Shown one piece after another: positions 30,301 through 50,997 of a DNA stretch of 64,000 bases. Every line of letters starts with the position of its first letter. Position 1 is the first letter of the stretch. A program made the position numbers and the translations under genes. The DNA is from Bacteroidales bacterium UBA3808 (GTDB taxonomy: Bacteria; Bacteroidota; Bacteroidia; Bacteroidales; Paludibacteraceae), in contig DFEG01000010.1 of the NCBI GenBank assembly GCA_002369075.1, positions 2 to 64,001 on the forward strand. The letters are read 5' to 3'. The notes under the pieces were generated by a model. The model did no database searches. It had not been told where the DNA came from and saw nothing but the letters and a program-made list of their open reading frames with translations.

Positions 30301-30307
30301 GAAAAAG

Positions 30308-33115
30308 ATGAACTATTCACCGGGACAACGAATCACGGTACGCGAGGAAGAATTCCGTATCGTTCGAGTAGACGCCTATGACGCGCAGCATGCGTTTTTG
30401 CATTGCTGGGGACTGAGCGAGTTGGTTAAAAACCACTCCTATATCTTCGACACTAACATCGAGAAAGACATCGCTGTGGTCGACCCGACCACTGTTCAAC
30501 TAGTGCCGGAAACGGACACCCAGTGCAAGAAAACGCGCCTGTTGCTCGAAGCAGAAATACGCAACAATGCCTATTTCTCCAACAAGATCATCATCGCCGA
30601 CAAAGGTGCTTATAACCTCTCTGAGTACCAACTCGAACCGACCCTCAAAGCCTTCGAACTGCCCCGTCCTCGTCTGCTCATTGCTGACGGCGTCGGTCTC
30701 GGTAAAACGATCGAGGTTGGTATCTTCCTCTCTGAGATGATTCGTCGCGGGCGCGGACAACGTATACTCGTCTGCGCGTTGAAGTCTATCTTGGCGCAGT
30801 TCCAAGAAGAGCTCTGGACCCGCTTCGCTATCCCCTTGATGCGTCTCGATAGCTACGGTGTGGATAAGATCCGTGCCGAGATACCGATGAACAAGAACCC
30901 CTTCGATTTCTACGACAAGATCATCATCTCCATCGACACGCTCAAGAACAACGGTAAGTTCCGTGGATGGCTCGAGAAAACGCGCTGGGACATCATCGTC
31001 ATTGATGAGTGCCACACCGTCGCCAACGATGCTAGCCTTCGTGGTGACTTAGCGCAGTTCCTCGCCGGTCGGTGCGATAGTCTCATCCTCACCTCTGCCA
31101 CACCCCATAACGGCAACCCTAAGTCCTTCGCCAATCTCATCAACATGCTTGACCCCATCGCCATTCCGCGTAACGGCAAGTACGGACAGGCGGAGGTCGA
31201 ACCATACTACGTGCGCCGCTTCAAGAAGGACATCCTCGACCAGCAGGTGCGCAGTAATTTCCAGGAACGGCAAGTACACTCCGTGCCTATTCATTTCGAA
31301 GAAGCGGAACTCAACTTCCTCCGCCTCCAGAACCAGCTCAAAGTTCGTCTGCTCCATGACGAAGACCGTGCCGACGCACTCTTCGCCGTGCAGATCTTCA
31401 AGTCCTTCCTCTCTTCGCCTGCCGCAGCTATTAGCACATTGAAGAGCCGTATTGAGAGAAGAGAAAATGAAGACGACAACCTCACCCAACTCTATGAGGC
31501 CATGTCGGATATCGTCACCATGGGTATCGACAGTCGGTACGCCGCTTTCAATGCGCAACTAAAGAAGATCTGGTCGGAGAACAAGAACGAACGTATCGTG
31601 GTCTTCAGCGAACGTATCGACACCCTCCGTTTCCTCGAAGAACGCCTCAAAGCCGACTTCCGTCTGCGCGATGAACAAGTGCGCGTCTTCGATGGTTCGC
31701 TCAGCGATGTGGAGCAAGAGGACATGGTCGCTGACTTCGGCAAAGCCGACAGCCCCATTCGTGTTTTCCTCAGCAGCGACTCCGGCTCGCAAGGTGTCAA
31801 CCTCCATTTCTATTGCCACAACATGTTCAACTACGATATCCCGTGGTCGCTCATCACGCTCGAACAGCGCAATGGACGTATCGACCGGTACGGCCAGCAG
31901 CAGACCCCGAATATCTACTACCTCGTCGCCAACACCGACGAAGAACAGCTCAAGACCGATTTCACCATCATCGACCGCCTCAAACGCAAAGAGGAAGAGG
32001 TGCATAACACCCTCGGTGATGCCATGCAGGTCATGAATCTCTACAGCGTGGACAAGGAGGAACGTGCCGTGTCCGATGCAATCCTCACCGGCAATGTCAA
32101 CTTCCTTGACCAACCGGCAGAAGCACCGCAAGCAGAAGGCTTCGGCGATTTCTTCGCCCTCATGAGCCAATCCACTCCGCCGGTCACCCACCGCGAGATG
32201 ATCGAGAAACGCATGTCCCTCTACGAGGACGATATGCATTTCTATCAGGAACTATTCGACACCCTTCGCAACGAAGGTGCGCTCCACGACACGCCCGTCG
32301 AACTCAAGACCGGCACCGGAGCACCGTACTTCGATATCCCCTACAGCCGTGAACTCAAGGAAGTCCTCTTCGACATGCCGAAGGAAGCCCTGCCTGTACG
32401 CAGCTCCTTCTGCCTTTGTGCCGACAAAAAGGCGATCATGGACTCCATCGAGAAGAGCCGTCGCACCAACGACAACCGCTGGGCAGAGATGCAGCTCCTT
32501 TACGACCTGCACCCCATCATCCAGTATATGATCACTAAGCTGACCGCCAGCGTCCCCAAGAACGAAGCACGCGTCGTCAAGACCGACCTCGTTCCGCAAG
32601 GCACCATCAACTATCTCTTCTACGGCAGTCAGTCCAACGGTCTCGGACACTCCATCATGAGTAAGTTCTTCGTCGTCTCGGTTCGTCCCGATGGTTCGCT
32701 CGTTGAGACACCCGTCTCGCTGGCTGACTTCATGGCGCAGCACCCCATCGACAAGCCCTTCTACGGCATGCAGGTAACGGACTCCGAACTGGCACTCGCC
32801 CAGTCGCTCCTACCTCAAGCCGTTGAGCATGGTCAGATGAAATACCTCATCGACCAGCAGGCTAAACAGCGTGACCGCATGCAGAACTATCTCGCCAAAT
32901 ACAACGAGAAAGTGAAACGGTGGGCTGACGAGAGTGAACGAGCTGTGCAGAACACCCTCTTCGATGGTTCGGAAGTGCAGATAACACGCCGCACCAAAGA
33001 TAAAGAACTGCAAGAGATCGAAACAATCCGCGACAAGAATAGCATGTTCTATCGCGATATGTTCACCCTGGATAACGTACCTTATATTCGCCCCTTGGCT
33101 GTTTTCTATAATTGA
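30308..33115 (+). CDS. SNF2-family helicase (DISARM DrmD-like)
   Basis: LIADGVGLGKTIEVG, VIDECHTVAN, LTSATPHNG, QGVNLH, RNGRIDRYGQ. Confidence 0.85.
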   Translation: MNYSPGQRITVREEEFRIVRVDAYDAQHAFLHCWGLSELVKNHSYIFDTNIEKDIAVVDPTTVQLVPETDTQCKKTRLLLEAEIRNNAYFSNKIIIADKGAYNLSEYQLEPTLKAFELPRPRLLIADGVGLGKTIEVGIFLSEMIRRGRGQRILVCALKSILAQFQEELWTRFAIPLMRLDSYGVDKIRAEIPMNKNPFDFYDKIIISIDTLKNNGKFRGWLEKTRWDIIVIDECHTVANDASLRGDLAQFLAGRCDSLILTSATPHNGNPKSFANLINMLDPIAIPRNGKYGQAEVEPYYVRRFKKDILDQQVRSNFQERQVHSVPIHFEEAELNFLRLQNQLKVRLLHDEDRADALFAVQIFKSFLSSPAAAISTLKSRIERRENEDDNLTQLYEAMSDIVTMGIDSRYAAFNAQLKKIWSENKNERIVVFSERIDTLRFLEERLKADFRLRDEQVRVFDGSLSDVEQEDMVADFGKADSPIRVFLSSDSGSQGVNLHFYCHNMFNYDIPWSLITLEQRNGRIDRYGQQQTPNIYYLVANTDEEQLKTDFTIIDRLKRKEEEVHNTLGDAMQVMNLYSVDKEERAVSDAILTGNVNFLDQPAEAPQAEGFGDFFALMSQSTPPVTHREMIEKRMSLYEDDMHFYQELFDTLRNEGALHDTPVELKTGTGAPYFDIPYSRELKEVLFDMPKEALPVRSSFCLCADKKAIMDSIEKSRRTNDNRWAEMQLLYDLHPIIQYMITKLTASVPKNEARVVKTDLVPQGTINYLFYGSQSNGLGHSIMSKFFVVSVRPDGSLVETPVSLADFMAQHPIDKPFYGMQVTDSELALAQSLLPQAVEHGQMKYLIDQQAKQRDRMQNYLAKYNEKVKRWADESERAVQNTLFDGSEVQITRRTKDKELQEIETIRDKNSMFYRDMFTLDNVPYIRPLAVFYN

Positions 33116-36100
33116 TGAGCACTATGGCAGAAAACGTAAAATATCGGTTTATTGAGAATATTGGTGATTACTTCCCAAGTGATTACTTTGGCGAAGACTT
33201 CCTCAAGAAAGTGCAACAACTGGCCGACTATAATGACGACCAGATGAAGGCACTCTGTCCGCCTTATGTACAGCTCAAGGAGCACTATACCCAATACAAG
33301 AACTTCATCGTCAACCAGAACCCGCGTATCAAAGATGCAATCTTACGAACCAACGAGTTCCACAAGCGTCTGCTTACCATTCTTGGCTATGACCCTGAAG
33401 ACAAAGGCTATAACGAGAAATATATCGTCAGCGAAGATGGCGACAAAGCGGAGATCATCCCTGTCCGGAATATCCTCCGTACCCATAACAAAGTCCAAAT
33501 GCTCATCATGGAGATGCGACCCCTTATCAAGGTCGGCGAAGATGAACCCGCAGGTCTCTTCCAGCAGCAGTACGACGATGGCGAAGTGCCGCATCAGCGT
33601 TATTCCGCCAGTCATTGGGAGTCCGTCTTCACCTTTGACAAAGAGCATGAGCGTATCTCGCCTTCCGTCATCAACAAAGCGGTCAGCCAGATCTTCCTCA
33701 TGCCCGAAGAGAAACGTCCGCAATACATCCTCATGTTAGCGGGTAGCAAGGTTATGCTCCTTGACCAAGATAAATGGGCACGCGGCAGTTACCTCATCTT
33801 CTCGCTCGATGAACTCTTCTCGCAAGCAAGCATATCGGCCTTCCGTAACTACTACGCCCTCTTCCATCTGCTCGTCTGCAAGGACACCCTTGCTGCCGAC
33901 AGTGAGACGCTGCTTATGTCCTCCCTCATCGAGGATAGTTACCGCAACGCCTATTCGGTCACCCAAGACCTCAAGCAAGGTGTCGTCAAAGCCGTAGAGA
34001 CTATCGCAAACGAAGCGCTCTATTACATGAAGAACGTCGCGCATCAGCCCTTCGGTAAACGACAGGAGGATGGCACCTACGACGAGACCGACGATCGCTT
34101 CGAAGCCGAAGTTAAAGATGACTGCCTCACCCTCGTCTATAGACTCCTCTTCATCTTCTATGCTGAGAGCCGTCAGGAACTGGAGATCCTTCCTACCAAC
34201 GATGAGGTCTATAACAAAGGCTACTCCCTCGATATGCTTCGCGACCTTGAGCAAGTCAACCTCGTCAGCCAGCAGAGCCGCGACGGTTATTTCTTCGACG
34301 ACAGCATCAAGAACCTCTTCTACATGCTCAGTCATGGCATCAACGAGGGTGTCGAGACCAAAGCTTTCCGCGTCATCCATATCGATAGCCCGATGTTCGA
34401 TGACTCTAAACTGAACCACCTCAACGGGGTCAAACTGCGCAACCAGAAATGGCAAGAGATTATACGCTCCCTCTCACTCTCCAATCGGGATGGCAAATGT
34501 GGACGTATCTCCTATGCCAACCTCGGCGTCAACCAATTAGGTAGCGTCTATGAGAGTCTGCTCGCATATCGCGGTTTCTATGCCGAAGAAGATTATATCG
34601 AGGTACACAAAGCTGATACTCCGCAAGACGGCACTTTCCTCGTGCCCTATAGTCGCTTCGAAGCGTTCGACCTCAGCGAAGTGCTCACTGATAAAGACGG
34701 CATGCCGATCATCCTCAAGAAAGGCACTTTCGTCTATCGACTTAACGGTCGTGACCGGCAGAAATCAGCCAGTTACTACACCCCCGAAGTGCTCACACGC
34801 AGTACCGTCAAATATACCCTCAAGGGAATCCTCGAACGCGTCGAGAAAGGAGAGATATCGGCTCTCGAACTGCTCAACATGAAAATCCTCGAACCGGCCA
34901 TGGGAGCCGCAGCGTTCCAGAACGAGGTCATTAACCAACTCGCTGAAGCCTACCTCACCTATCGAAGCAAAGAACTGCGTGAGCAAGGACGGGAGAAATG
35001 GCGTATCGAGCCCGATAAGTACCGCGATGAACTCCAGAAAGTCAAAGCCTATATCGCTACCCATAATGTCTATGGCGTAGACTTGAACCCCACCGCAATC
35101 GAACTGGGTAAACTGAGTCTCTGGCTTAACGTTATCCATAAAGACATGGAGACTCCTTTCTTCTCCAATCGTCTTGCGCTTGGTAATGCAGTCATTGGTG
35201 CTTGGCTCAAGGTGTACGACAAATCCGAAGTGGTAGGTAAACCCGCTCGTAACAACAAACTCATTCCTACCGAGTGGTGGGAACGTGCACCGCATCGACT
35301 CCACTTCAAGAATAACCGCATCAAGCGTAACCCCAACGAGATATACCATTTCCTCCTTCCCGATAAGAACATGCTCGGTGTCCGTGCCATCAAAGAGCAG
35401 AAAGCGGCACACCCCACCGAATCCTCTCTCATGTCGCAGAAGCTGGCGCAATGGACAGCTGCGCTATCGTCTGAGGAGTTTAAGACGCTCCAACGGCTCT
35501 CATCCAAGATCGACATCCTCCTTCGCGAGTATGTCGAGTTCCAGATGTCTATCGAGAAACTGACGGAGAACCGCTATGCCCTTTGGGGAACACCCGGCAA
35601 GAACGAGACCTCGATGCTCGACAGCAACGACTTCGTCGATACCTATCGCGAGAAGCAAGAACTCAACGACACCCGTTATCGTCATGATAACGCTTACTAC
35701 CGTCTCAAGATGGTCATGGACTACTGGTGCTCGCTCTGGTTCTGGGAGTACGACGATGCCAACAGTCTGCCCTCACGTGAGGACTACTGGAACGATATCG
35801 AAGCTATGCTCGATGTCAGCGATGAGAAACTCAACAAAGGAGCAAAGATGGTTATCAAGCCCTCTAACCTTCATGTGGGTGGTGAGCAGATGCGTATGTT
35901 CGAGGAAGAGACTCAACTGACCATCGGAGATGAAGTTGTTGTAGAGGAATCACCCTACGAGCAGACCGATGAAGAGACCTCTGTGCTCCTTACCAAGACC
36001 AAACAAGAGATCCTTGCCGAGACACAAGGACACCGCACAACGCTCTTCGATAACTCCTATCGTTTCCGTATCGTCGCACGACTCGCAGAGCGATACCATT

Positions 36101-38064
36101 TCTTCCATCCCATGCTCGAATTCGCCGAAGTTTTCTGGCTCCGCGATGGATTCGATATCATCTGCGGTAACCCGCCATGGTTGAAACTGGAATTCGACGA
36201 GCAAGGTATTCTTTCGGAGAAATATCCGGAAGTAGCGATTAGAAAGATGTCTGCACCTGAGGTAAGAAGTCTTCGTGATACCATGTTTAGTCAAATACCT
36301 GTGACTGAAACATTGTACCGTAGCGAAGAAACAGAAACTGCCGGTAGTGCCGTATTCATGAACGCACATTGCAACTATCCTCTATTGGCAGGACAGCAAA
36401 CCAATCTATATAAATGCGTCTTAGAGAATGGCTTCTCGCAACTCTCGCAAAATGGTTTTATGGGATTATTGCACCCTGAAACAGTCTATGATGATCCAAA
36501 TGGTCAACCTTTACGTCGAGAGATATATCCGAGATTACGGTATCATTTCCAATATCATAATGAGCTGCAACTATTTGCGGAGGTTCACCATAACACAAAA
36601 TATGGAACGCATGTTTATGGATCGCCACAAAGCCATATCAGTTTTTATAGTATTCATGACTTGTTCCATCCAGCAACAATAGATGGTTGTTTTTCTCATG
36701 ATGGACATGGTGTATGTGGCGGTATAAAAGACGATGATGGTAAATGGAATCTAGAATCACACAAAAATCGCATTGTGCACTTCACTGATAATGAACTAAG
36801 AGTTTTGTGTGATGCTTTTGAGGATGGAGAGAATTGGCAAACAACGAAACTTATTTCGATACATTCAAATGTTATTGTTTCTGTACTTGAAACATTAAGC
36901 AGATTCCCTCATCATGTCAGGAATTATCGTCGGGTTATTTCAGAGGGTTTGCACGAAACGAACGCTGTTGATAAAGGCATTATGTGTCGTAACACAAAGA
37001 TTCCAGACGTTGACCGTTACGAGATGATATATAGCGGACCCCATATCTATGTCAGCAATCCTCAATATAAAACCCCGAGAATTAAATGCGTTTTGAATTC
37101 TGATTATGATATTGTAGATGCCTCTAACAAAGATTCATTTATCAGGACTAATTATACTCCCGTTCTTCCAATAGAACAGTACAAAGAAGTTATCGAAGGA
37201 TTTGAAGAATCTGAGATATCTTGGATTGATGGGATAAAAGTTGGGCTTAGAAAAATGCTGAGTATATCCGGAGAGCGTACGCTTACGCTTGCCCTATTAC
37301 CTAGTAAATCATCGCATACAAATGGTATTATTTCGATAATATTCCCAACTAACTGGCAAAATGTAGAATTTACTGGGCTTGGCTCTTCGACAATTCTTGA
37401 TTTCTTCATCAAAGTAATTGGTTCGCAAAATATGACGGAGGGGCGCTTGTCTTCTTTCCCATTAGGCATTGACGATAAGTACAAGTCTGCTCTTTATGTG
37501 CGTACTCTCTTGCTCAACTGTCTCACCGAGCCGTATAGCCCATTATGGGAAGAGTGCTGGCGTGAGGATTATCGTTCGCAGCAATGGTCAATCGGCGATA
37601 GCCGTCTCAAACCATTTAATACCCTTACTAAACAATGGTCGTGGGATATTCCGCTCCGTAACTACTTCGAGCGGCACCAAGCTCTGGTTGAGATAGATGT
37701 CATCACAGCTATGGCACTCGGTCTATCCCTCGAAGATCTGGAGATGATTTATACCATTCAATTCCCTGTCCTTCAGCAGAACGAGAACGATACATGGTAT
37801 GATGCCGAAGGCAAGATTGTCTTCACCTGCTCTAAAGGTCTCACCGGTGTAGGTCTCGATCGTCCCGTTTGGGATAGCATCAAGGGAGAAATATCCGAGG
37901 ATGGGCTAACTGCCAAAGGTGTTGCGCCCACCTATGAGCACACCATCACCAAATCGGAACTGTACCAAGGTCAGAAGCAGACCTTCGTCGCACCATATAC
38001 CTGCTGCGACCGTATTGCAGATTACCGCCGTGCTTGGGAACACTTCGAGAAGATCTTAAAATAA
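33115..38064 (+). CDS. Very large N6-adenine DNA methyltransferase (Eco57I/PglX/DrmMI-like)
   Basis: SASYYTPEVLT, ILEPAMGAAAFQNE, YGVDLNPTAIELGKLSLWL, IICGNPPWLKLEF. The start overlaps the SNF2 stop (TGATG). Confidence 0.85.
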   Translation: MSTMAENVKYRFIENIGDYFPSDYFGEDFLKKVQQLADYNDDQMKALCPPYVQLKEHYTQYKNFIVNQNPRIKDAILRTNEFHKRLLTILGYDPEDKGYNEKYIVSEDGDKAEIIPVRNILRTHNKVQMLIMEMRPLIKVGEDEPAGLFQQQYDDGEVPHQRYSASHWESVFTFDKEHERISPSVINKAVSQIFLMPEEKRPQYILMLAGSKVMLLDQDKWARGSYLIFSLDELFSQASISAFRNYYALFHLLVCKDTLAADSETLLMSSLIEDSYRNAYSVTQDLKQGVVKAVETIANEALYYMKNVAHQPFGKRQEDGTYDETDDRFEAEVKDDCLTLVYRLLFIFYAESRQELEILPTNDEVYNKGYSLDMLRDLEQVNLVSQQSRDGYFFDDSIKNLFYMLSHGINEGVETKAFRVIHIDSPMFDDSKLNHLNGVKLRNQKWQEIIRSLSLSNRDGKCGRISYANLGVNQLGSVYESLLAYRGFYAEEDYIEVHKADTPQDGTFLVPYSRFEAFDLSEVLTDKDGMPIILKKGTFVYRLNGRDRQKSASYYTPEVLTRSTVKYTLKGILERVEKGEISALELLNMKILEPAMGAAAFQNEVINQLAEAYLTYRSKELREQGREKWRIEPDKYRDELQKVKAYIATHNVYGVDLNPTAIELGKLSLWLNVIHKDMETPFFSNRLALGNAVIGAWLKVYDKSEVVGKPARNNKLIPTEWWERAPHRLHFKNNRIKRNPNEIYHFLLPDKNMLGVRAIKEQKAAHPTESSLMSQKLAQWTAALSSEEFKTLQRLSSKIDILLREYVEFQMSIEKLTENRYALWGTPGKNETSMLDSNDFVDTYREKQELNDTRYRHDNAYYRLKMVMDYWCSLWFWEYDDANSLPSREDYWNDIEAMLDVSDEKLNKGAKMVIKPSNLHVGGEQMRMFEEETQLTIGDEVVVEESPYEQTDEETSVLLTKTKQEILAETQGHRTTLFDNSYRFRIVARLAERYHFFHPMLEFAEVFWLRDGFDIICGNPPWLKLEFDEQGILSEKYPEVAIRKMSAPEVRSLRDTMFSQIPVTETLYRSEETETAGSAVFMNAHCNYPLLAGQQTNLYKCVLENGFSQLSQNGFMGLLHPETVYDDPNGQPLRREIYPRLRYHFQYHNELQLFAEVHHNTKYGTHVYGSPQSHISFYSIHDLFHPATIDGCFSHDGHGVCGGIKDDDGKWNLESHKNRIVHFTDNELRVLCDAFEDGENWQTTKLISIHSNVIVSVLETLSRFPHHVRNYRRVISEGLHETNAVDKGIMCRNTKIPDVDRYEMIYSGPHIYVSNPQYKTPRIKCVLNSDYDIVDASNKDSFIRTNYTPVLPIEQYKEVIEGFEESEISWIDGIKVGLRKMLSISGERTLTLALLPSKSSHTNGIISIIFPTNWQNVEFTGLGSSTILDFFIKVIGSQNMTEGRLSSFPLGIDDKYKSALYVRTLLLNCLTEPYSPLWEECWREDYRSQQWSIGDSRLKPFNTLTKQWSWDIPLRNYFERHQALVEIDVITAMALGLSLEDLEMIYTIQFPVLQQNENDTWYDAEGKIVFTCSKGLTGVGLDRPVWDSIKGEISEDGLTAKGVAPTYEHTITKSELYQGQKQTFVAPYTCCDRIADYRRAWEHFEKILK

Positions 38065-38071: not shown

Positions 38072-38842
38072 ATGAAGGATAAATTACTGAAATTAAAGCA
38101 AGACTTGGGACCACTGGATAGTTACTACGATCAATATCCTGAGTTGGATCGCATTATTAACGCGTTAAAGATGTATATTGGTCAATGCCTTCCTAAGGAG
38201 AAGAAAGAATGGGAAGATCGTATAAATGCTATTCAGTATCTATCTCCGATGGTGCAGTTTTCGGGTTACTATGATAAAGAGCGAGATAAGAGCGCCTTCC
38301 AGAAAGGCACCAAATCATTAGCTAATATCATTGATTTAGTCATTGAGCGTATCGAGATGGAAGAGCAACCTGCTCCCGCTAAGCGAAAGGCTAAATGTGA
38401 TAACCCCAACGTCTTTATCGTTCATGGTCACGACGAAGCAATGCGAGAGAAGGTTGCCCGGACAATTGAGAAATTAGAACTTACTGCAATCATTCTTAAC
38501 GAGCAAAGTAATAAAGGACAGACGATCATTGAGAAACTAGAGGAACACTCCAATGTTGGGTTCGCTGTCGTTCTATTGTCCCCTTGCGATGAAGGTAGAA
38601 AGGCCGGTGAAAATGATTGGCTGCCTCGCGCAAGGCAAAATGTCATCGCAGAAATGGGCTACTTCATTGGAAAATTAGGTAGAGATCGAGTTTGTATTTT
38701 GCAGAAAAAAGAGGTTGAAACACCATCTGATTTCACAGGTATCGTATATACTCCGTTTGATGAGAATGATGGCTGGCAATTGAAGTTGGCTAAAGAACTG
38801 AAAGCCGCTGGATATAATGTAAAAATCGAAAATCTATTATAG
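38072..38842 (+). CDS. TIR-like domain protein (PF10137 / COG4271 type, CAP12/Pycsar-effector-like) with a ~110-aa N-terminal helical domain
   Basis: NVFIVHGHDEAMREKV...ILNEQSNKGQTIIEKLEEHSNVGFAVVLLSPCDEG...RARQNVIAEMGYFIGKLGRDRVCIL...PSDFTGIVY...GWQLKLAKELKAAGY. Confidence 0.8.
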   Translation: MKDKLLKLKQDLGPLDSYYDQYPELDRIINALKMYIGQCLPKEKKEWEDRINAIQYLSPMVQFSGYYDKERDKSAFQKGTKSLANIIDLVIERIEMEEQPAPAKRKAKCDNPNVFIVHGHDEAMREKVARTIEKLELTAIILNEQSNKGQTIIEKLEEHSNVGFAVVLLSPCDEGRKAGENDWLPRARQNVIAEMGYFIGKLGRDRVCILQKKEVETPSDFTGIVYTPFDENDGWQLKLAKELKAAGYNVKIENLL

Positions 38843-38844: not shown

Positions 38845-41800
38845 ATGTTACCACTCCAACAAGCGTACGAGGTGAAGGAATCGGTGCTGGCCTACATTGA
38901 AGCCACTTTCCGATTCAAAGAAGAGAAAGTGCATAGCGCTTTCTATCAACTCATTCGCGACCCTGAAAACGGACTCTTCAAAGGACCATACATCTCCTTG
39001 AAGACTCCCTTCGTCAAAGCCACTCCCGAAGAAGCCGCAGCTATCCCCTTGGATATCAAGCCAACCGGATTCCTTCCCCATAAGCACCAGCTGCGTAGCT
39101 TCGAGCGACTCACTTCCCGTGACGGGCATCAGCCTCAGCCGACGCTCCTCACCACCGGTACCGGTTCCGGTAAGACCGAGTGTTTCCTCTATCCGATCCT
39201 CGACTACTGCTATCGGCTCAACAAAGATGGTGCACAAAAGGGTATCAAGGTTATCATCATGTACCCCATGAACGCCCTCGCTACCGACCAAGCAACGCGT
39301 CTCGCAGAAGCAATATACAACGATGAAAGACTCCGCGGAGTGGTAACGGCGGGACTCTTCATCGGTGAAGGTGCGGAACGCAAGGCACACGCAACCACGA
39401 TGGGAGAACATAACATCATCGAAGATCGAGACACCATCATCAATACCGCACCGGATATCCTTCTCACCAACTTCAAGATGTTGGATTACGGTCTCATGCA
39501 GCAGCAATATACCAAACTGTGGCACGGCAATGCCAACACCGCAGAACCTATGCTGCGCTATCTCGTCCTCGATGAGTTGCATACCTACGATGGTGCGCAA
39601 GGTACTGATGTCGCTAACCTCATCAGACGTCTCAAACTTAAACTATCGCTCCCCAAACATCATCTCTGTCCGGTTGGCACCAGTGCAACCATCAGCGGTG
39701 GTGAACAGAGCAAGCAGCAACTCATAAGCTACGCTTCCGATGTCTTCGGAGAAGATTTCGACGACCAATCGGTCATTGGTGAAGATCGTGTCGCAATCAA
39801 CGATTTCTTCGATGAATACCTCGACCCCTTTATTCCTTCCGAAGCCGACCTGCAGACCTGCAACGTCCAACTCATGCCGATGCCCGATTATATCCAGCAG
39901 GTACGCCGTATCTGGCTCCCTGGTGCAGGTGATAACCTCGAAGCGATCGGAGAAGGAATACGTTCCCTTACCGTCATTCGTGACCTGCTGAGCATCACCC
40001 AAGAGCATGTCGTTACGGTCGAGCAATTGGAAGACAAACTCGGTGATATCAACCCCGCCTTCCAGCGCCTGCGTCTCAAAGGCAAAGGCAAAAAGGTCAT
40101 CGAGACCATTCTTGCACTCGTTTCCGAAGCACGTGACGGGAAATTCCCGCTGCTCTTCCTCCAGATCCAACTCTGGCAACGAGAACTCAGTGGTGTCGTT
40201 CGCTACGTACAACGCGAACCTGAATTCACATGGCGTAACAGCCTGGAGCAAGACGGTCGTGTCGCGCTCCCAATTTACTTCTGCCGTGACTGCGGTGCAA
40301 GTGGTTGGATCAGCACCAAGAACGCAACCGACTTCCGTTTTGCTACCGACCTCGGTAAGATCAACAAAGCCTTCATGTCCAACGATAAGGACATCGTGCT
40401 CATCAATACCTATGGTCTCAACCATAAACCGATCCCCGACTATCTGGGTGAAGCATCAACCAACGTGGAGGAATATATCCGTCCGCGTGACCTCACCATT
40501 GTCGATAGTTCCGACGATGAAGCAATGCGTATCGTCTATTGCTCCAAACGTCGTGTAGCCAAGAAAACAGGTTCGCAGGCTTTCGTTAAGAACTGTCCGG
40601 AGTGCAACAGCAACTCCCTCGCTATCGTTGGTGGTCGTACCAGCACACTCTCTTCTGTCGCAATCAGTCAGATCATGGCTTCTGACTTCGACGAAAGCGA
40701 TATCGCACAACGCAAAGTGCTCACCTTCACCAATAGCGTCCAAGACGCAGCGCACCAAGCCGGTTTCTACGAGGCACGAACCTATCGTTTCCTCCTTCGT
40801 CAGTCCATACAGCAGTACCTCAAATACCGCTATGAGCAGACGAACGCGCCGATCCGGCTTACCGAATTGCAAGAAGGATTCAAAGCTTATTGGAAAGAAC
40901 ATCTTCCCGGAGATGAGTACTACTATCGCTTCCTTCCGACCGACCTCCTCAACCAAGTCGATCTCAACGAGAACTACCGTGATGCCAACGGTCAGTTCAT
41001 CGAAGCCTTCAAAAAGGAATTCGACCTGCGTATCGATTGGGAGATTTGTGCGGAATTCGGTCTTATGGCGCAACGAGGTCGTACCCTCGAGAAAGTAGGT
41101 TCCAGTGCGTGCTTCTTCGATAAAGAACAACTCGAAGATGTCTTCACCATCATGCAACCATGGATGCGGGAAAACCAACTCGACTATGTCGCAGACGACC
41201 GCCAGCGTTTCCTCCTCTTCCTTAATGGACTCCTCCACCGTATGCGTCTGCGTGGTGCTGTCGATCATCCTTACTATGAGCGATATCGTGGTATCGAGTT
41301 CAAACAAGTGAACCTCAACTGGTCTTTCCAACTGCAACATACCCACTTCCTCAATAAGAAATTCTTCGGCAATGTGCAGTTCCCGAAGTTCTTGCTCACC
41401 CATTACGAGCGGGATCTTTCTGACATACTGGACATCACCGAAATGCAGGGAAATAACGTCAATTGGTACGCCCAGTTCTTCCAACGTTCATTAGAAGGAA
41501 GTCAATTCGGTCAAAAAGCCTATCGTGAAGTGATCAACGATTTCTACCAGCGTCTGCTCGAAGCGATGGTCGAAGCCGGACTCGTCAATCGTGGCAATGC
41601 GGCTAATGGCAACTATGCCATCTGCCCCGAAGCCATCCTCGTAGAACCGCGTGTGAAGCATATCAAATGTGAAGATTGTCAGTCCATGCTCTGTGTGGCG
41701 CAAAGTGATACACTCGCGGAAGGTATTGCCTGTCTGAACTATAACTGCAACGGCTCTTATACCCAAGTACAGCGGAAGGAAGACAACTACTATAAACGCG

Positions 41801-44800
41801 TCTATGACCGAGACAAAGCACCGCGTATCTATGCCCACGAGCACACCGGACTACTCGAACGCTCCAAACGGGAAGAGATTGAGAACGACTTCAAACTGCA
41901 CCCGCATTTCAACTCCATCAATGCCCTCTCTGCTACCAGCACACTCGAGATGGGTATCGACATCGGTACGCTCAACGTCGTCGGCAATACCGACATACCG
42001 CCCAAACCCAGTAACTTCTTACAGCGTATCGGTCGTGCGGGACGTAAATCAGGTACGGCCCTCGTTCTCAACTATGCCCACTCCGATGGAGCACACGATA
42101 TGTTCTACTTCGCCGACCCGCTCGGCATGATGGAAGGAGAAGTGCAGACTCCGGGTTGTTTCTTGCAAGCCAAGGATATTCTCCGGCGTCATTTCTTCGC
42201 GTTCTGTATCGACTCATGGACTTCTGCTGATCCGACGAACACCATTCCGGCGCTCGTCAAACTCATGTCCTTGCGCAGAGATACACTCGCATCGCCCGAT
42301 TTCTTCCTCACGAAGATCCTGGCGTTCATCGATACCAACCGCGATACACTGCTCGCTAAATTCAGGGAACAATATCCGCCGAAAGCAGAAGAATCGCTCG
42401 ATAAACTCCAAGAGACCGTCATCAACGGCGATTTTGCAGAAGCCATCAAAGGGGCCTTCCGTGATCTCATCGAGCGCCACATTAGTACGTTTCGTCGCAT
42501 GAACGATATCGAGTCCCAGATCAATGCACTCGCTGCAAACGATCCGAGACGCGACGCACTCAAAGATGAACTCAAACCGCTCAAACGAGAGATATCCCGT
42601 ATCCTCAATGCCAACGTCATTGAGTTCATGACCAATGCCGGTCTGCTGCCGAACTATGCCTTCCCTGAGACTGGTGTCAAACTGGAAGCAACCGTCTATA
42701 AGCAGAAGCCCGCTGAAGATGAGAGTGTCTCCGAACTTATGCCCGACACCTTCGAACTCGTACGTCCCGCGTCCAACGGTCTCAAAGATCTTGCCCCGGG
42801 AAACCGATTCTATTCGCAGAAATACGAGATGCTGATATCCGGTGTCAATACCTTCGATTGGAATAAGACCCTCGGACGATTCCGTTACTGCTCCGATTGC
42901 GATTGTATCGCTGCCGAAGGAACCGACTGGTTCAACCAGCCTACCTGTCCCAAATGTGGTAGCGCTTCATGGGGTGGAACCGGTAACATCCACCATTTCC
43001 TCCGCTTCACCGGTGCTCGAAGCAGCATGAAACGAACCGATGCAGCTATCAACGACCGTTCCGATGAACGCGAACGCGAAAATTTCCATATCATGAAGCA
43101 TTTCCGCTTCAACTACCATGGTGCAGTCCGCTCCTACGGTCTCAAGAACGTCGGTTTCGGTATTGAGTTCTGTCCGGAAATGGACCTCATGGAGGTCAAC
43201 TACGGACCGCAGATGGCTTCGCAATCGCAAGTACAGATCGAGGGTGCTAAAGTACCGTCGCGTGGATTCATCGTCTGCCGCGAGTGTGGCAAGACGGTCA
43301 CCAAAGAAGTGGCTGACGCAGAAGAATGTCACTATCCTTTCTGCCACCACAAAGATGTACCGTACCCGCCGCATGAGGAAGCTGACATGGATGTCTTCAT
43401 GCCCACCTATCTCTACCGGCGCACTCAAACCGAAGCCATCAAAGTGCTGCTCCCTGTTCATCTACTTGATACCGAAGCTACGGTGCAGATGTTCAAAGCC
43501 GGACTCGAACTCGGCATGCGGTACTACTACCAGAGTAGCCCCGATCATATCCGCATCGATGTATACCGCGAGATGAACCAAGCCACACGCCAGTTCGATA
43601 ACTACCTCATCATCTACGATACCATTCCGGGTGGTACCGGCTATCTCTCGCGACTCCAATCGCCCGAAGAATTCAGCAAACTTCTCACCATCGCCTACGA
43701 GCATATCCGCGATTGTGAGTGCCAACGGCACGGAAAGGATGGGTGCTACCATTGTATCCTCTCTTATGCCAACCAATATATCCGGGAACAACTCAGTCGG
43801 GATCGTGCCGAAGAACTCTTCAAGAAACTCGTCGATGAACTCTCCAACTGGGAAGAGATAGATGGCTCTATCGGAACCGTCACGCAGAGTGGTGTCATCG
43901 AAGATAGCGAACTCGAACGGCAGTTCATCCTCGATATGGATCACTACTGCCGTGCCCACAATGGTTGGACGTGGTCCAAGCAACATGGCGAGAATGGTCT
44001 CTACCATTATATCCTCGATATCAAGCAGAAAGACCGTGCCTTACGTTACGTCATTCGTCCGCAATACCAACTCGGTGAAGCACAAGGCGTCGCCTTATAC
44101 ACCGTGCCTGACTTCCAGATCATCTGTATCAAAGCCATGGTGAACGGACAGAACATAGAGACCGAACGTATCCCGCAGTGGTCTATCTACCTCGACGGCT
44201 ATAGCTTCCATGCCAACTCTGAGTGCATGCGTTTCTATAGCGACTTCGAGAAACGGGAAGCTATTCGTCATAATACGCTCACCCGCATGAACACGTGGAC
44301 GCTCACTTGGGATGATCTCAATATCTTCGAAGGACAAGCAACGGTCGCTGAAGATGGACTCTATAACGGTAACTCCATGAACGGGTTCGCCAATGAGACC
44401 AGACTCGCCAAGAACTCCTTCGAACGACTCTTGCAAATGCTCATCTTGGTCGATATCGATTCAATTCGTTTTGATATCTACAAATACTTAGTTTGTAAGT
44501 CAACCAGTAGTGAGAATATTTGTCCTCCAGAGAGAGTAGAAGATGCTATATTCCTTCACGCTAATGGGGAATTCGCTGACGAAGTGACTCCGCAGATGAG
44601 GCAAAATTGGTCTTTCTTCGTTAAAAATCAATTATTGCAGCGTTCTTCACTCGTCAATGGATCTGCATGGGTGATGCCAAAACAAGGCGTTACTGTACAA
44701 GACAAACTCGAAGATAAGGTATGCTACGACTTCCAGATTGTTCCGAACCTTTCTGTAATCAACAAAGAAGATTGGAATGACTTTTGGCGTCGTTACAATC

Positions 44801-44853
44801 TTCTGCAGTTCTTCAAACTTGTGGGCGATGAAGAATCAGAAATAGAGGAATAA
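38845..44853 (+). CDS. 2002-aa DEAD/DEAH helicase fused to a DUF1998/MZB zinc module (DrmA-DrmB-like fusion) with several zinc ribbons and a C-terminal Vsr/DUF559-like motif
   Basis: LLTTGTGSGKTECF, VLDELHTYDG, LQRIGRAGR, the CRECG...CYHC module, zinc ribbons CRDCG/CPECN and CSDCDC...CPKCG, and the tail VPDFQ...IYLDGYSFH. Confidence 0.8.
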   Translation: MLPLQQAYEVKESVLAYIEATFRFKEEKVHSAFYQLIRDPENGLFKGPYISLKTPFVKATPEEAAAIPLDIKPTGFLPHKHQLRSFERLTSRDGHQPQPTLLTTGTGSGKTECFLYPILDYCYRLNKDGAQKGIKVIIMYPMNALATDQATRLAEAIYNDERLRGVVTAGLFIGEGAERKAHATTMGEHNIIEDRDTIINTAPDILLTNFKMLDYGLMQQQYTKLWHGNANTAEPMLRYLVLDELHTYDGAQGTDVANLIRRLKLKLSLPKHHLCPVGTSATISGGEQSKQQLISYASDVFGEDFDDQSVIGEDRVAINDFFDEYLDPFIPSEADLQTCNVQLMPMPDYIQQVRRIWLPGAGDNLEAIGEGIRSLTVIRDLLSITQEHVVTVEQLEDKLGDINPAFQRLRLKGKGKKVIETILALVSEARDGKFPLLFLQIQLWQRELSGVVRYVQREPEFTWRNSLEQDGRVALPIYFCRDCGASGWISTKNATDFRFATDLGKINKAFMSNDKDIVLINTYGLNHKPIPDYLGEASTNVEEYIRPRDLTIVDSSDDEAMRIVYCSKRRVAKKTGSQAFVKNCPECNSNSLAIVGGRTSTLSSVAISQIMASDFDESDIAQRKVLTFTNSVQDAAHQAGFYEARTYRFLLRQSIQQYLKYRYEQTNAPIRLTELQEGFKAYWKEHLPGDEYYYRFLPTDLLNQVDLNENYRDANGQFIEAFKKEFDLRIDWEICAEFGLMAQRGRTLEKVGSSACFFDKEQLEDVFTIMQPWMRENQLDYVADDRQRFLLFLNGLLHRMRLRGAVDHPYYERYRGIEFKQVNLNWSFQLQHTHFLNKKFFGNVQFPKFLLTHYERDLSDILDITEMQGNNVNWYAQFFQRSLEGSQFGQKAYREVINDFYQRLLEAMVEAGLVNRGNAANGNYAICPEAILVEPRVKHIKCEDCQSMLCVAQSDTLAEGIACLNYNCNGSYTQVQRKEDNYYKRVYDRDKAPRIYAHEHTGLLERSKREEIENDFKLHPHFNSINALSATSTLEMGIDIGTLNVVGNTDIPPKPSNFLQRIGRAGRKSGTALVLNYAHSDGAHDMFYFADPLGMMEGEVQTPGCFLQAKDILRRHFFAFCIDSWTSADPTNTIPALVKLMSLRRDTLASPDFFLTKILAFIDTNRDTLLAKFREQYPPKAEESLDKLQETVINGDFAEAIKGAFRDLIERHISTFRRMNDIESQINALAANDPRRDALKDELKPLKREISRILNANVIEFMTNAGLLPNYAFPETGVKLEATVYKQKPAEDESVSELMPDTFELVRPASNGLKDLAPGNRFYSQKYEMLISGVNTFDWNKTLGRFRYCSDCDCIAAEGTDWFNQPTCPKCGSASWGGTGNIHHFLRFTGARSSMKRTDAAINDRSDERERENFHIMKHFRFNYHGAVRSYGLKNVGFGIEFCPEMDLMEVNYGPQMASQSQVQIEGAKVPSRGFIVCRECGKTVTKEVADAEECHYPFCHHKDVPYPPHEEADMDVFMPTYLYRRTQTEAIKVLLPVHLLDTEATVQMFKAGLELGMRYYYQSSPDHIRIDVYREMNQATRQFDNYLIIYDTIPGGTGYLSRLQSPEEFSKLLTIAYEHIRDCECQRHGKDGCYHCILSYANQYIREQLSRDRAEELFKKLVDELSNWEEIDGSIGTVTQSGVIEDSELERQFILDMDHYCRAHNGWTWSKQHGENGLYHYILDIKQKDRALRYVIRPQYQLGEAQGVALYTVPDFQIICIKAMVNGQNIETERIPQWSIYLDGYSFHANSECMRFYSDFEKREAIRHNTLTRMNTWTLTWDDLNIFEGQATVAEDGLYNGNSMNGFANETRLAKNSFERLLQMLILVDIDSIRFDIYKYLVCKSTSSENICPPERVEDAIFLHANGEFADEVTPQMRQNWSFFVKNQLLQRSSLVNGSAWVMPKQGVTVQDKLEDKVCYDFQIVPNLSVINKEDWNDFWRRYNLLQFFKLVGDEESEIEE

Positions 44854-44871: not shown

Positions 44872-45849
44872 ATGCAAGTTATCAAGAAAACATTTGAGTA
44901 TTTCACGGCAGAAAAGTACTGCGATTTGGAATATGGTACAATCTATTATGTGCCCGGAACATCCTCGCACGAACTCAACGACTATATCTGCGCACGTGCC
45001 GACGAGATAGCCGCTCAGCTCAACAACGATGACCGTAACTGGGTCACATGCCGTATCGTCTACCTCACAAAAGACAATCCTCTCTTTGCTCCGTCCTCAA
45101 AACCTACGCTGCACAGCGCCATGTTACCGACGAGCGATACGCCCGCAAACGCATGCAGTTTCCTAAAGGCATCGCTGGACATCACCGAACCTTCCATTGT
45201 CGAAGACGCTCTCATCGAGTATTTCCGCACCTTGCAGCTGATGTTCGATGATATCTTGGACAAAGGCACGTGTAGCCATTATCTTCTGACTAGTACGATA
45301 CTCTCGCCCGTCGATGATCAGATTCGCTTCTCTGTTTCCCGTCGGGAGATGGATTTCGATGAAAATCGTATTAAAACTTGCGAGTGTCTCGACATGGCGT
45401 ACGAGGAAGAAGATGTTGAGCATTTCGACTATCCGAGTCGCCTCGAAATCACACCTAATACCTTCCAAGTGCTCCTACCGGACTACCATCGGGAAATCAA
45501 GTTCAACGCGCAGATTAAAGCCCTGTACGTACTCTTTCTTAACCACCCGGAAGGCATTCGCATGAAGGAAATCGGCGACTACAAAGAGGAGTATAAGCAA
45601 CTTTATCTATATTTCACTAATCGTGGTAATCTGGAACAGTTACGCCTCGCTGTCGATAAACTCTTCGATGCGTATAACCCCAATACCCTCAATGTCAAAA
45701 AATCCCAATGCAGCGAGCAATTAAGAATTGCTATTCCAGAAGATAACTTGCGACAATACTATGAGATTCAAGTTCATCGCGGCGAACCCCACAAGATCAA
45801 CCTCGACCGCTCCCTTGTCTCTATGCCTGATTTCTTGCACCAACTATAG
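44872..45849 (+). CDS. Hypothetical protein, last gene of the DISARM-like operon
   Basis: 325-aa ORF 19 nt after the helicase stop. No recognisable motif. The C-terminal third (ALYVLFLNHPEGIRMKEIG) could be wHTH-like. Confidence 0.5.
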   Translation: MQVIKKTFEYFTAEKYCDLEYGTIYYVPGTSSHELNDYICARADEIAAQLNNDDRNWVTCRIVYLTKDNPLFAPSSKPTLHSAMLPTSDTPANACSFLKASLDITEPSIVEDALIEYFRTLQLMFDDILDKGTCSHYLLTSTILSPVDDQIRFSVSRREMDFDENRIKTCECLDMAYEEEDVEHFDYPSRLEITPNTFQVLLPDYHREIKFNAQIKALYVLFLNHPEGIRMKEIGDYKEEYKQLYLYFTNRGNLEQLRLAVDKLFDAYNPNTLNVKKSQCSEQLRIAIPEDNLRQYYEIQVHRGEPHKINLDRSLVSMPDFLHQL

Positions 45850-45923: not shown

Positions 45924-46889
45924 ATGACCCAAGAACAAGACATAAGTAAACTGGATTTGCTATTTACGGAAATTGATACGTACCGTAGCAGTAAATTCTT
46001 CAAAAGGTTGATCGAATTCTGCGCCCGCTTTAAGACGCTGGCACCATACAACGCAATGCTTGTGCGCTTCCAAATGCCGGGTGCTCGTTATGTATTGACC
46101 TCTGCCGAATGGAGATCCAGATATCACCGCGGCGTGAAAGCAAAAGCAAGACCGTTAATCATCCTTGTGCCCTTTGGACCGGTGAATTTCGTGTTCGACA
46201 TCAAGGATACGTATCCTCTATCTCCTGATGATCCAAACACCACGGAGCAGATTCTGAAAGCGATGGAAAATCCTTACGCAACGCACGGGGAATTCAACAG
46301 ACAGTATCTTCATTTTCTCGAAAACAACCTGCAATATCATGGTATAGCTTACAATCCTAATTGGGAAACCGGTTCTACGGTGGCTGGAGAGCTCAAGCCA
46401 CTGCCGAATTCTTCAGAATACATGAAAGTTTATATTCCTTTTAGGAAAGGAGAGTTTCCTGTGCAGTCAAAGGCTCATTACGTTTTGAGCACCAGCAGTG
46501 ACGGCCATGATGGACAAACATTGGCCACTATTGCACATGAGTTGGGACATCTATTCTGCAATCATCTGCCCGCGCCCAAAGGTTGGAAGCATGCTTGGGC
46601 AGAAAGAGACATCGAATCCGAAGCCAAAGAATTTGAAGCAGAAGTGGTCTCATGGTTTATATGCGACAGATTGGGAATAAAGACTCCTTCTCACGAATAT
46701 CTCAGTGGCTTTTTGAAAAGCAATGATGAAATCCCCAAAGGAGCAAGCGTAGAAAGAATATTCTATGCCATCACTAAGGTGTGGGAAATGTGTTATAATG
46801 TGAACTTCACGTATAGAAATGGTTTGTTATACAAAAACGACGAGAAGTTTCAGGATGACGTCAAAGCAATAATAGAAAAGAACAAATAA
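45924..46889 (+). CDS. HExxH zinc metallopeptidase (ImmA/IrrE-like; the N-terminal half is possibly ArdC-N-like)
   Basis: ATIAHELGHLFCNH. The N-terminal PYNAMLVRFQMPGARYVLTSAEWRSRYHRGVKAKARPLIIL resembles the ArdC/DUF1738 pattern, judged by eye. Confidence 0.55.
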   Translation: MTQEQDISKLDLLFTEIDTYRSSKFFKRLIEFCARFKTLAPYNAMLVRFQMPGARYVLTSAEWRSRYHRGVKAKARPLIILVPFGPVNFVFDIKDTYPLSPDDPNTTEQILKAMENPYATHGEFNRQYLHFLENNLQYHGIAYNPNWETGSTVAGELKPLPNSSEYMKVYIPFRKGEFPVQSKAHYVLSTSSDGHDGQTLATIAHELGHLFCNHLPAPKGWKHAWAERDIESEAKEFEAEVVSWFICDRLGIKTPSHEYLSGFLKSNDEIPKGASVERIFYAITKVWEMCYNVNFTYRNGLLYKNDEKFQDDVKAIIEKNK

Positions 46890-47341
46890 TGGATACCCCT
46901 AAGAAAATAGTATATGTGGACATGGATAATGTCCTTGTCGATTTCCAGAGCGGGATAGATGCCATGCAAGACGTCATTACGTCAGAGTATGACGGTCGCA
47001 TTGACGAAGTGCCGCATATCTTTGCACACATGGAACCGCTCCCCGGCGCCGTTGAAGCCTACCGCGCCTTGTGCGAAAAATATGATTGTTATATCCTCAG
47101 CACTTCTCCTTGGAGCAACCCTACCGCTGCAAGCGATAAGTTCGATTGGGTTAAGAAATATCTTGGCGATGTTGCCTATAAGCGTCTAATCCTCTCGCAC
47201 CACAAGAACCTCAATCGTGGTGACTATCTGATCGATGATCGCCCTAACAAATGTGGTGCCGACCTCTTTGAAGGCGAAGTAATTCCTTTTGGCAGCGACC
47301 AATTCCCCAACTGGGATGCAGTATTGAAGTATTTATTGTAA
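46889..47341 (+). CDS. 5'(3')-deoxyribonucleotidase (NT5C family, HAD superfamily)
   Basis: HAD motif I (VYVDMDNVLVDF), ILSTSPW, and the C-terminal DYLIDDRP. Confidence 0.7.
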   Translation: MDTPKKIVYVDMDNVLVDFQSGIDAMQDVITSEYDGRIDEVPHIFAHMEPLPGAVEAYRALCEKYDCYILSTSPWSNPTAASDKFDWVKKYLGDVAYKRLILSHHKNLNRGDYLIDDRPNKCGADLFEGEVIPFGSDQFPNWDAVLKYLL

Positions 47342-47363
47342 TGAAATAATTAATAGCTAATTT

Positions 47364-48134: not shown

Positions 48135-48177
48135 CGTTACAAACTTTTGGGTGTCTCCCAAAATTGTAGTACTTTTG
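48126..48177 (+). promoter_or_regulatory. Palindrome-promoter cassette 2 (AGTTTGTAACGTTACAAACT, TTTG, 20 nt, TACTTTTG)
   Basis: Perfect 20-bp palindrome at 48126-48145 overlapping the TAA stop at 48132-48134. -33 at 48146-48149 and -7 at 48170-48177. Confidence 0.7.
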
Positions 48178-48212
48178 CAGTGGATTTCAAAATCTGCTGC
48201 AATTTTTGTATT

Positions 48213-49805: not shown

Positions 49806-49837
49806 TATATTGTCTAACCCTCAAAAATTATTGAACT

Positions 49838-50994: not shown

Positions 50995-50997
50995 CTT

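Follow-up and report, generated by a model that had tools for sequence, protein, structure and literature searches.

A TIR-like gene of the PDC-S35 type embedded between armB and armC of an ARMADA type II-like operon in a Bacteroidales bacterium

We analyzed a stretch of 64,000 nt from the genome of Bacteroidales bacterium UBA3808 (contig DFEG01000010.1; hereafter the window, to which all coordinates refer unless another locus is named). It contains a gene for a 256-aa protein with a TIR-like domain (38072–38842, + strand) that is embedded in an operon which, judged by homology, is an ARMADA type II-like system with homologs of ArmA, ArmB, and ArmC and without ArmD. Overall, the explanation that we favor, and consider reasonably probable, is that the TIR gene is a mobile cassette of the PADLOC PDC-S35 type that serves as an autonomous, second-layer NADase, that is, an enzyme hydrolyzing nicotinamide adenine dinucleotide (NAD), in this ArmD-less operon. 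The parts of this explanation differ in strength. The gene is very likely to be horizontally acquired, embedded cargo. That it acts as an autonomous, NAD-depleting abortive infection (Abi) gene is favored by a small margin, as we infer its NADase activity, its trigger, and its autonomy.

The TIR gene starts with an ATG and is separated by 7 nt from the upstream gene for a 1,650-aa methyltransferase, which ends at 38064, and by 2 nt from the downstream gene for a 2,002-aa helicase, which begins at 38845; all three open reading frames (ORFs) are on the + strand. An earlier note on this DNA had given the same two spacers, had quoted the motifs VFIVHGHD, LNEQ, GQTIIEKLEE, FAVVLLSPCDEG, RARQNVIAEMGYFIGKLGRDRVCIL, PSDFTGIVY, and W.LKLAKELKAAGY from the translation, and had described the gene as more AT-rich than both neighbors. 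The ORF coordinates, the translation, and the base composition agree with all of this. The GC content of the TIR gene is 0.407 and its GC content at third codon positions (GC3) is 0.40, compared to a GC3 of 0.69 in the SNF2 helicase gene at the start of the operon, 0.63 in the methyltransferase gene over its first two-thirds, and 0.58 in the helicase gene. The TIR gene is not the sole compositionally foreign piece, since a segment of the methyltransferase gene (36202–37401) and the 3′ end of the helicase gene are likewise GC-poor. Because the spacers are tiny, the genes are co-oriented, and a terminator scan revealed no terminator-like site on the + strand near the TIR gene, it is probably transcribed together with armA, armB, and armC from the operon promoter. 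The scans for sigma-70 promoters and terminators yielded no excess over shuffled sequences, and the sigma-70 model does not cover Bacteroidota promoters.

The assignment of the protein to the PF10137 family, made by eye in the earlier note, was corroborated by the profile search that the note had proposed. The Pfam profile PF10137 (CAP12-PCTIR_TIR) matches aa 113–230 with an E-value of 2.1e-39 and 134.6 bits, compared to a gathering cut-off of 24.7 bits, and the alignment covers profile positions 1–118 of 119; by its score, the match is far beyond chance. Nearly the whole protein (aa 4–255) aligns with positions 6–262 of the 264 positions of the PADLOC PDC-S35 model PDLC05005 (E = 1.9e-78), and the PDC-S35 models PDLC05007, 05004, 05006, and 05003 match as well (five in all). 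The PADLOC models for the CBASS “Effector TIR” and for PycTIR align with the TIR part only (PycTIR, E = 1.3e-10), as do the NCBIfam Cap12 models, which reach 39–41 bits against an equivalog cut-off of 450 bits. There is also a weak match to Pfam TIR_2. Sequence matches in the PDB, obtained with a family profile, were Cap12 (9lmq, 7e-11; 7un8, 1.5e-8) and PycTIR (8jsj).

An AlphaFold2 model built on 30 homologs (predicted local distance difference test, pLDDT, 83) consists of a helical bundle (aa 2–97), a disordered linker (aa 99–107), and an alpha/beta domain (aa 113–256), in line with the helical N-terminal domain of about 110 aa described previously. With Foldseek, the top 10 matches in the PDB were the TIR domains of TIR-STING (Cap12) filaments (E-values down to 2e-5), followed by the TIR domains of MyD88, SARM1, and SPARTA. 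Together with the Pfam and PDB sequence matches, this delimits a putative TIR-like catalytic domain at aa 113–256 (38408–38842, + strand). The N-terminal bundle (aa 1–98; 38072–38365, + strand) has helices at aa 2–12, 22–39, 41–52, 59–64, and 69–97, mostly with pLDDT values above 85. It had no match in Pfam, among PDB sequences, or by fold, and is a candidate sensor, auto-inhibitory, or oligomerization module. With a mean pairwise identity of 0.26, compared to 0.58 for the TIR domain, the bundle appears to be the much faster evolving part of the protein.

The predicted active site resembles that of SfSTING. The alignment places RARQNVIAE of the window protein opposite RDNVVFE of SfSTING, so that R188, N190, and E194 correspond to R78, N80, and E84. 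In SfSTING, R78 and N80 bind NAD+, E84 is catalytic, and D110 from a neighboring subunit completes the site (PMC9402430). By this alignment, the codons for R188-Q-N190-V-I-A-E194 (38633–38653, + strand) are predicted to specify the NAD-binding Arg and Asn and the catalytic Glu. In addition, D220, in a PSD motif, is aligned with the SfSTING segment that we infer to hold D110. Because the equivalents of R188, N190, E194, and D220 are invariant across the 30 homologs, the catalytic residues expected of an oligomerization-activated NADase are intact, and NADase activity is predicted.

The chain ends with the TIR domain, and no STING, SAVED, or cyclic-nucleotide-binding domain was found in the protein. 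No cyclase was present among the 18 ORFs of the operon and the surrounding island that were scanned with PADLOC or Pfam, in agreement with the earlier note, which had seen no cyclase partner. Three known types of TIR effectors were considered and rejected. A CBASS Cap12 effector would have a C-terminal STING domain and an adjacent CD-NTase, neither of which is present, and the Cap12 scores are those given above (39–41 versus 450 bits). For the Pycsar effector PycTIR, the model matches only the TIR part and a cyclase partner is missing. For Thoeris ThsB, neither the TIR protein nor its neighbors had a ThsB or ThsA match in PADLOC.

The host operon had been taken for DISARM-like. This view has to be revised, because the three proteins are full-length homologs of ArmA, ArmB, and ArmC of E. 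coli, which points to an ARMADA type II-like operon. ARMADA is defined by three proteins, namely a helicase similar to BrxHII/RapA, a PglX-like methyltransferase, and a helicase of the YprA family; type II systems almost always have armD as a fourth gene behind these (Bell et al., 2025, PMC12458937). As a reference, the ARMADA type II locus of E. coli EDL933, which has been validated by experiment, was compared protein by protein with BLASTP. The armA-like gene (30284–33115, + strand, with the ATG at 30308 as its probable true start) encodes a 943-aa SNF2/RapA-type helicase (Pfam SNF2-rel_dom and Helicase_C; PADLOC DrmD model, 1.8e-97) that is 34% identical to ArmA over 968 aa (4e-173). The armB-like gene (33112–38064, + strand) encodes a 1,650-aa PglX/type IIG-like adenine methyltransferase (Eco57I domain; PADLOC REase_MTase_IIG, E = 0) with 37% identity to ArmB over 1,522 aa (880 bits). 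The armC-like gene (38845–44853, + strand) encodes a 2,002-aa YprA-family DExH helicase with a DUF1998/MZB region (Pfam DEAD, Helicase_C, and MZB), which is 31% identical to ArmC over 1,922 aa (804 bits); its match to DruE is patchy (104 bits). Searches for near-identical DNA with the 17.5-kb operon gave no match in E. coli genomes and plasmids.

Two other host systems were considered and rejected. DISARM class 1 does not fit, as the operon encodes a single fused helicase/DUF1998 protein of 2,002 aa and no PLD nuclease domain. In the case of Hma, HmaB is a 5-methylcytosine methyltransferase, whereas the window enzyme is an Eco57I-type adenine methyltransferase; no match to HmaB or HmaC was found, the SNF2 protein was the sole Hma match (HmaA), and the HATPase_c protein encoded upstream of armA had no PADLOC match. 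The PADLOC models for DrmD and DrmMI match the window ArmA and ArmB, and for this reason ARMADA loci would probably have been counted under DISARM-like systems.

The operon differs from its relatives at its 3′ end. A homolog of armD, which encodes a GajB-like UvrD helicase with a RelE-like domain, was not detected in the window by tblastn (E ≤ 1e-3); ArmD is present in 46 of 57 informative related loci, and close relatives, with 50–64% identity in the ArmC N-terminus, carry it. Where relatives have armD, armC is followed by a gene for a 325-aa protein (44872–45849, + strand) that has no match in Pfam, PADLOC, or NCBIfam. In the alignment, the window ArmC ends about 95 residues short of the C-terminus of its relatives. 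The Vsr-type PD-(D/E)xK nuclease expected at the C-terminus of ArmC could not be confirmed: there was no Pfam or PDB sequence match, and the AlphaFold2 model of aa 1640–2002 (pLDDT 61) had no significant Foldseek match. A conserved PDF...DGYxFH motif in the ArmC alignment is suggestive only in this respect, and tblastn with the ArmC C-terminus matches the window at 43795–44433 (1.4e-8).

The junction between armB and armC turned out to be highly variable. Scanning the ArmC N-terminus against 185,579 species genomes yielded 80 ARMADA-related loci, mostly from Bacteroidota, none of which carries a TIR homolog. For 77 of them, the length of the armB–armC junction, from stop to start codon, could be determined. 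Only six junctions are shorter than 200 nt and thus effectively empty, four measure 200–500 nt, and 67 (about 87%) contain at least 0.5 kb of inserted DNA, in the extreme more than 10 kb. One canonical armA-armB-armC-armD operon (L044) has an armB/armC spacer of 5 nt, and in E. coli EDL933 the two genes overlap by one base. The ORFs called in the inserts share, almost without exception, the strand of the operon. The cargo includes AbiEi with AbiEii, Tiamat TmtA (E = 3e-299), SoFic, PDC-S02 (YhcG/DUF1016), AlbA_2/Schlafen-HATPase_c_4-HTH proteins (HTH, helix-turn-helix), a GmrSD-like gene, and Mokosh-like SF1 helicases with large partners. Representative cargo thus consists of known or candidate stand-alone defense systems, and the junction is a habitual landing site for foreign defense genes in this lineage. 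In view of the variable junction and the many alternative cargoes, the TIR gene is one of many possible occupants of the slot. The ARMADA papers (PMC12458937; PMC13463889) mention neither embedded genes nor this slot nor Bacteroidota. Taken together, the GC3 contrast, the absence from the 80 related operons, and the promiscuous junction support the earlier proposal that the TIR gene is a later-acquired insertion.

Only one other operon with a TIR gene in the same slot was found, on a metagenomic contig (L001). Its flanking proteins make it the closest relative of the window operon (80% identity for ArmA, 75% for ArmB, and 73% for ArmC), while its TIR protein is only 53% identical to that of the window. 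The earlier note had held that absence of the gene from all related operons would indicate a random insertion; the gene is indeed absent from all 80 surveyed loci, but not from L001. Behind armC, L001 has an AT-rich spacer and a gene for an AAA ATPase (14600–15073 of that contig), and the last approximately 95 aa of ArmC are missing as well. The comparison with L001 also highlights the GC-poor internal segment of armB (aa ~1031–1430; 36202–37401, + strand). Its GC3 is 0.30, compared to 0.63 upstream, and it is 50–55% identical to L001, compared to 80–95% elsewhere in armB. It is a probable exchanged specificity or target-recognition module.

The TIR family itself is large and widespread. It comprises at least 7,956 clusters at 90% identity and occurs also in 1,152 plasmid records, where it is annotated as “nucleotide-binding protein”; in a search of 5.8 billion proteins, the closest non-identical protein was 53% identical. 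The 80 metagenomic loci with TIR homologs of 38–62% identity contain no homolog of ArmA, ArmB, or ArmC, and no conserved partner family of the TIR gene was found across them. Thus, the TIR family is genomically independent of ARMADA. Among the nearest full-length homologs, four are encoded after an Asp_protease_2 gene, sometimes with Sel1/TPR repeats. One near homolog lies 18 nt after a type III restriction-modification (RM) Mod-Res pair (L007/L008), one (L173) is located among methyltransferase genes beside genes for an AAA ATPase and a TIR_2 protein, and one homolog lies inside a RhuM island. The plasmid copies stand alone, some of them among toxin-antitoxin genes. PDC-S35 members thus are found embedded in ARMADA (window and L001), after a type III RM system, and as stand-alone genes on plasmids. 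In the literature searched, PDC-S35 is not mentioned, and searches for PDC-S35 and COG4271 gave nothing useful; the supplements of Payne et al. (2024) contain no text on PDC-S35 or PF10137, and a survey of TIR signaling from 2025 discarded stand-alone TIRs as well as those in CBASS or Pycsar contexts (bioRxiv 10.64898/2025.12.03.692087).

Several of these neighborhoods deserve a closer description. At L002/L003 (440–4611), L009, L170, and L171/L172, TIR homologs with 46–51% identity follow a gene for a 553–711-aa Asp_protease_2 (retropepsin-like) protein, and in three TIR loci a gene for a protein of about 484 aa and a 70-aa gene precede the protease gene. This gene set is absent from PADLOC and may represent an undescribed multi-gene TIR system; the protease gene is not present in the window. 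At L173 (224–5508), the TIR homolog is flanked by a 123-aa N6_N4_Mtase fragment and by a gene for a D12-class methyltransferase, with the AAA ATPase gene and the second, TIR_2-type TIR gene just upstream.

The relationship between the TIR proteins of the window and L001 is complex. In a neighbor-joining (NJ) tree they are paired with a bootstrap value of 66/100. The TIR domain of the window protein is 71% identical to the clade associated with type III RM systems and 67% identical to L001, and its N-terminal domain is 42–45% identical to the Asp-protease clade and 35% identical to L001; this mosaic was seen in the comparison of the window protein with P0002, P0003, and P0011. The pattern suggests domain shuffling within the family, and strict co-inheritance with ARMADA is no more likely than cassette replacement or such shuffling. 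An attempt to treat the two TIR genes as orthologs was not supported by the 66/100 pairing and the mosaic domain-wise identities.

The favored explanation can be phrased as a sequence of steps. A single-gene cassette of the PDC-S35 type would have arrived by horizontal transfer at the armB–armC junction of an ArmD-less ARMADA operon and would be expressed with ARMADA from the operon promoter. The variable N-terminal bundle would act as a sensor or auto-inhibitor, so that an infection cue that is sensed through this domain, or that is released from it, would lead to oligomerization. As in TIR-STING, oligomerization would complete a composite active site from R188, N190, and E194 together with D220 of the neighboring subunit. 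Hydrolysis of NAD+ would then leave the infected cell unable to support phage growth. Bell et al. (2025, PMC12458937) describe ARMADA of E. coli as acting directly and non-abortively. ARMADA would thus provide first-line, non-abortive restriction of unmodified DNA, and the TIR protein would form an abortive second layer that acts alone.

Several observations weigh against this explanation. The 145 PDCs are candidates only, and both a defense function and the NADase activity of PDC-S35 are deduced from homology (Payne et al., 2024). In nearly every case, the genes of the nearest TIR homologs lie at the end or in the interior of a tight operon, 10–68 nt after the upstream gene, which leaves room for dependence on a partner. 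Furthermore, the two TIR-bearing operons both lack armD, and the association of the TIR gene with the slot in the window and L001 has either persisted or recurred, which is also what functional coupling would predict.

The alternative that survives best, though we consider it unlikely, is a guard or integrated effector like PrrC. The TIR protein would be restrained or activated via the ArmB/ArmC complex and might substitute for the missing ArmD. Its trigger would be foreign DNA engaged by the helicase or a phage inhibitor that puts ARMADA out of action. The tight embedding with spacers of 7 nt and 2 nt fits this idea, as does the documented case of PrrC in EcoprrI, an embedded effector guarded by its host system. 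So does the retention of a TIR gene in the same slot of the closest operon, L001, despite 20–27% divergence of the flanking proteins and with the two TIR proteins as sisters in the NJ tree (66/100). In addition, both TIR operons lack the ArmD that is present in 46 of the 57 informative relatives, and in the ARMADA system of OI-172 of enterohemorrhagic E. coli (EHEC) all four genes, ArmD included, are needed for full defense (PMC13463889). The nearest TIR homologs mostly lie in operons behind upstream genes of various kinds, as a plug-in effector would. Against this, the association appears in two operons of a single lineage, which are not independent cases (n = 2). AbiE, Tiamat, or other cargo, but no TIR gene, is present in 11 other ArmD-less loci, and most occupants of the slot, such as AbiE and Tiamat, are self-sufficient. 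None of the 80 metagenomic TIR loci is adjacent to ARMADA genes, and the weak sister pairing of mosaic TIR proteins suggests cassette replacement rather than co-evolution with ARMADA. Triggering by the helicase complex, as proposed in the earlier note, thus found no supporting sign: the 80 TIR loci lack ARMADA genes, their neighbors vary, and the plasmid copies stand alone. An autonomous second-layer NADase gene that is co-transcribed with ARMADA is the more parsimonious explanation. The genomic evidence on a PrrC-type dependence, which is indirect, mostly argues against it.

ArmD of canonical type II systems combines a GajB-like helicase with a RelE-like toxin domain in one fusion protein. 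A related and slightly more doubtful possibility is that the TIR gene was recruited in the ArmD-less ARMADA lineage as its own abortive effector or PrrC-like guard and replaced this RelE-GajB module. The helical N-terminal domain would then dock on ArmB/ArmC, and NAD+ would be depleted when the helicase complex is stalled or inhibited.

There is little likelihood that the protein generates a signal in the manner of Thoeris ThsB, with a messenger derived from cyclic ADP-ribose (cADPR) or ADP-ribose (ADPR) whose effector would be encoded at another locus. Signal synthesis is common among bacterial TIRs (bioRxiv 10.64898/2025.12.03.692087), the protein has a weak TIR_2 match, and a microbial PARG gene and a NUDIX gene lie 13 kb downstream. 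However, no ThsA-like, SLOG, or Macro effector is adjacent, the characterized PF10137 members Cap12 and PycTIR are NAD-depleting effectors, no partner is conserved across the 80 TIR loci, and the ThsB model was not among the PADLOC matches. Least probable of all, by a little, is a non-immune or selfish role, either as an addiction-type toxin stabilizing the island or as a nucleotide/nucleoside glycosidase acting on modified bases and aiding self/non-self discrimination by ARMADA: the TIR-like fold is common to nucleoside 2-deoxyribosyltransferase and MilB-type hydrolases (PMC9402430) and the family is very common on plasmids (1,152 records), some copies lying among toxin-antitoxin genes, but no antitoxin-like partner is present, the conserved residues fit an NADase site and not a nucleoside hydrolase site, and the family was catalogued from embedding in defense systems.

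The operon with the presumably autonomous TIR gene is part of an island that adjoins a tyrosine integrase and tRNA-Leu. The integrase gene (61211–62524, − strand) abuts genes for tRNA-Leu(GAG), tRNA-Leu(CAG), and tRNA-Gly (61211–62880 altogether). By analogy to the ARMADA islands of E. coli, the defense genes are probably carried on an integrative element at tRNA-Leu. Upstream of the operon, an accessory gene for a 622-aa GHKL ATPase (28432–30300, + strand; Pfam HATPase_c) abuts armA and ends 7 nt before the probable armA ATG at 30308. It is GC-poor (GC3 0.385), has a weak C-terminal match to BbrUII/HgiDII restriction enzymes, and had no homolog in the 80 related loci. It is preceded by another GC-poor gene (26967–28313, + strand; Pfam, cluster C2) of the AlbA_2/Schlafen-HATPase_c_4-winged HTH type, and genes of the AlbA_2/Schlafen type occupy the armB–armC slot in eight other loci. 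A gene for a DnaG-like primase of 1,065 aa is located at 22112–25309, and a PorZ type IX secretion gene, which marks the genome as one of Bacteroidota, is also present in the window. Downstream of the operon, a gene cluster at 46889–53303 encodes an NT5C-like 5′-nucleotidase, an IetA-like AAA ATPase (48147–49805), a dual-specificity phosphatase, and a DUF1287 protein, as well as a microbial-type PARG (51880–52845) with an overlapping NUDIX gene that matches PADLOC PDC-S07 (52842–53303). Genes for ADP-ribose and nucleotide metabolism are thus found near the predicted NADase gene.

The window represents a clean natural case of the embedding of defense within defense in the recently named ARMADA family, and as one defense gene nested in another defense system it is a clear but fairly ordinary case. 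It also gives a defined operon setting to a very abundant family of stand-alone TIR proteins (more than 7,900 clusters). Of greater use is a by-product of the analysis, the junction itself. As it is filled in about 87% of the sampled loci by interchangeable defense genes, it can be mined for new systems, comparable to the mining of Hma, BREX, and type I RM loci. Should the TIR protein indeed be wired to ARMADA, it would be a second guard of the PrrC type and give a hint at the role of ArmD.

Several known systems can be compared with the locus. The PDC families stem from the “guilt-by-embedding” screen of Payne et al. (2024, bioRxiv 10.1101/2024.01.29.577857), who described them as uncharacterized cassettes inside BREX, DISARM, or type I RM systems and found 96.7% of the embedded genes to be co-oriented. 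The window protein has the same full-length architecture as PDC-S35, a helical N-terminal domain and a PF10137 TIR domain, and its gene is likewise embedded and co-oriented in a methyltransferase/helicase defense operon. The host differs, as it is an ARMADA system, which was unnamed in 2024 and which PADLOC would view as DrmD/DrmMI/DruE-like. With E. coli ARMADA type II, the window operon shares gene order and protein sizes (943 versus 952 aa for ArmA, 1,650 versus 1,644 aa for ArmB, and 2,002 versus 2,113 aa for ArmC) as well as end-to-end homology of 31–37%. However, it lacks ArmD and the last approximately 95 aa of ArmC, has the TIR gene between armB and armC, and stems from a Bacteroidota lineage that is not discussed in the ARMADA papers. 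The likeness to DISARM class 1 is confined to the SNF2 helicase (DrmD), the adenine methyltransferase (DrmMI), and a DUF1998-containing helicase; DISARM has a separate DrmA helicase, a DrmB protein with DUF1998, and a DrmC PLD protein, whereas helicase and DUF1998 are fused in the window and closest to ArmC.

CBASS Cap12 (SfSTING, 7UN8/9LMQ) and Pycsar PycTIR (8JSJ) belong to the same Pfam family of TIR domains and have the same fold as the window protein, in which the R/N/E catalytic triad and the Asp of the DD-loop are also conserved. By analogy, the chemistry is likely to be the same, that is, NAD+ hydrolysis activated by oligomerization. In contrast to both, the window lacks a STING or cyclic-nucleotide-binding domain, a CD-NTase, and a pyrimidine cyclase, and the putative sensor part is an unrelated helical bundle of about 100 aa that is located N-terminal to the TIR domain. 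PrrC in EcoprrI, BrxU in BREX, and Septu in Hma are likewise foreign defense genes nested, in the same orientation, in systems of the restriction/modification type. A physical guard relationship has been proven for PrrC, whereas there is no sign of such coupling for the window TIR. BrxU and Septu act independently, which is the behavior that we favor for the TIR protein described here.

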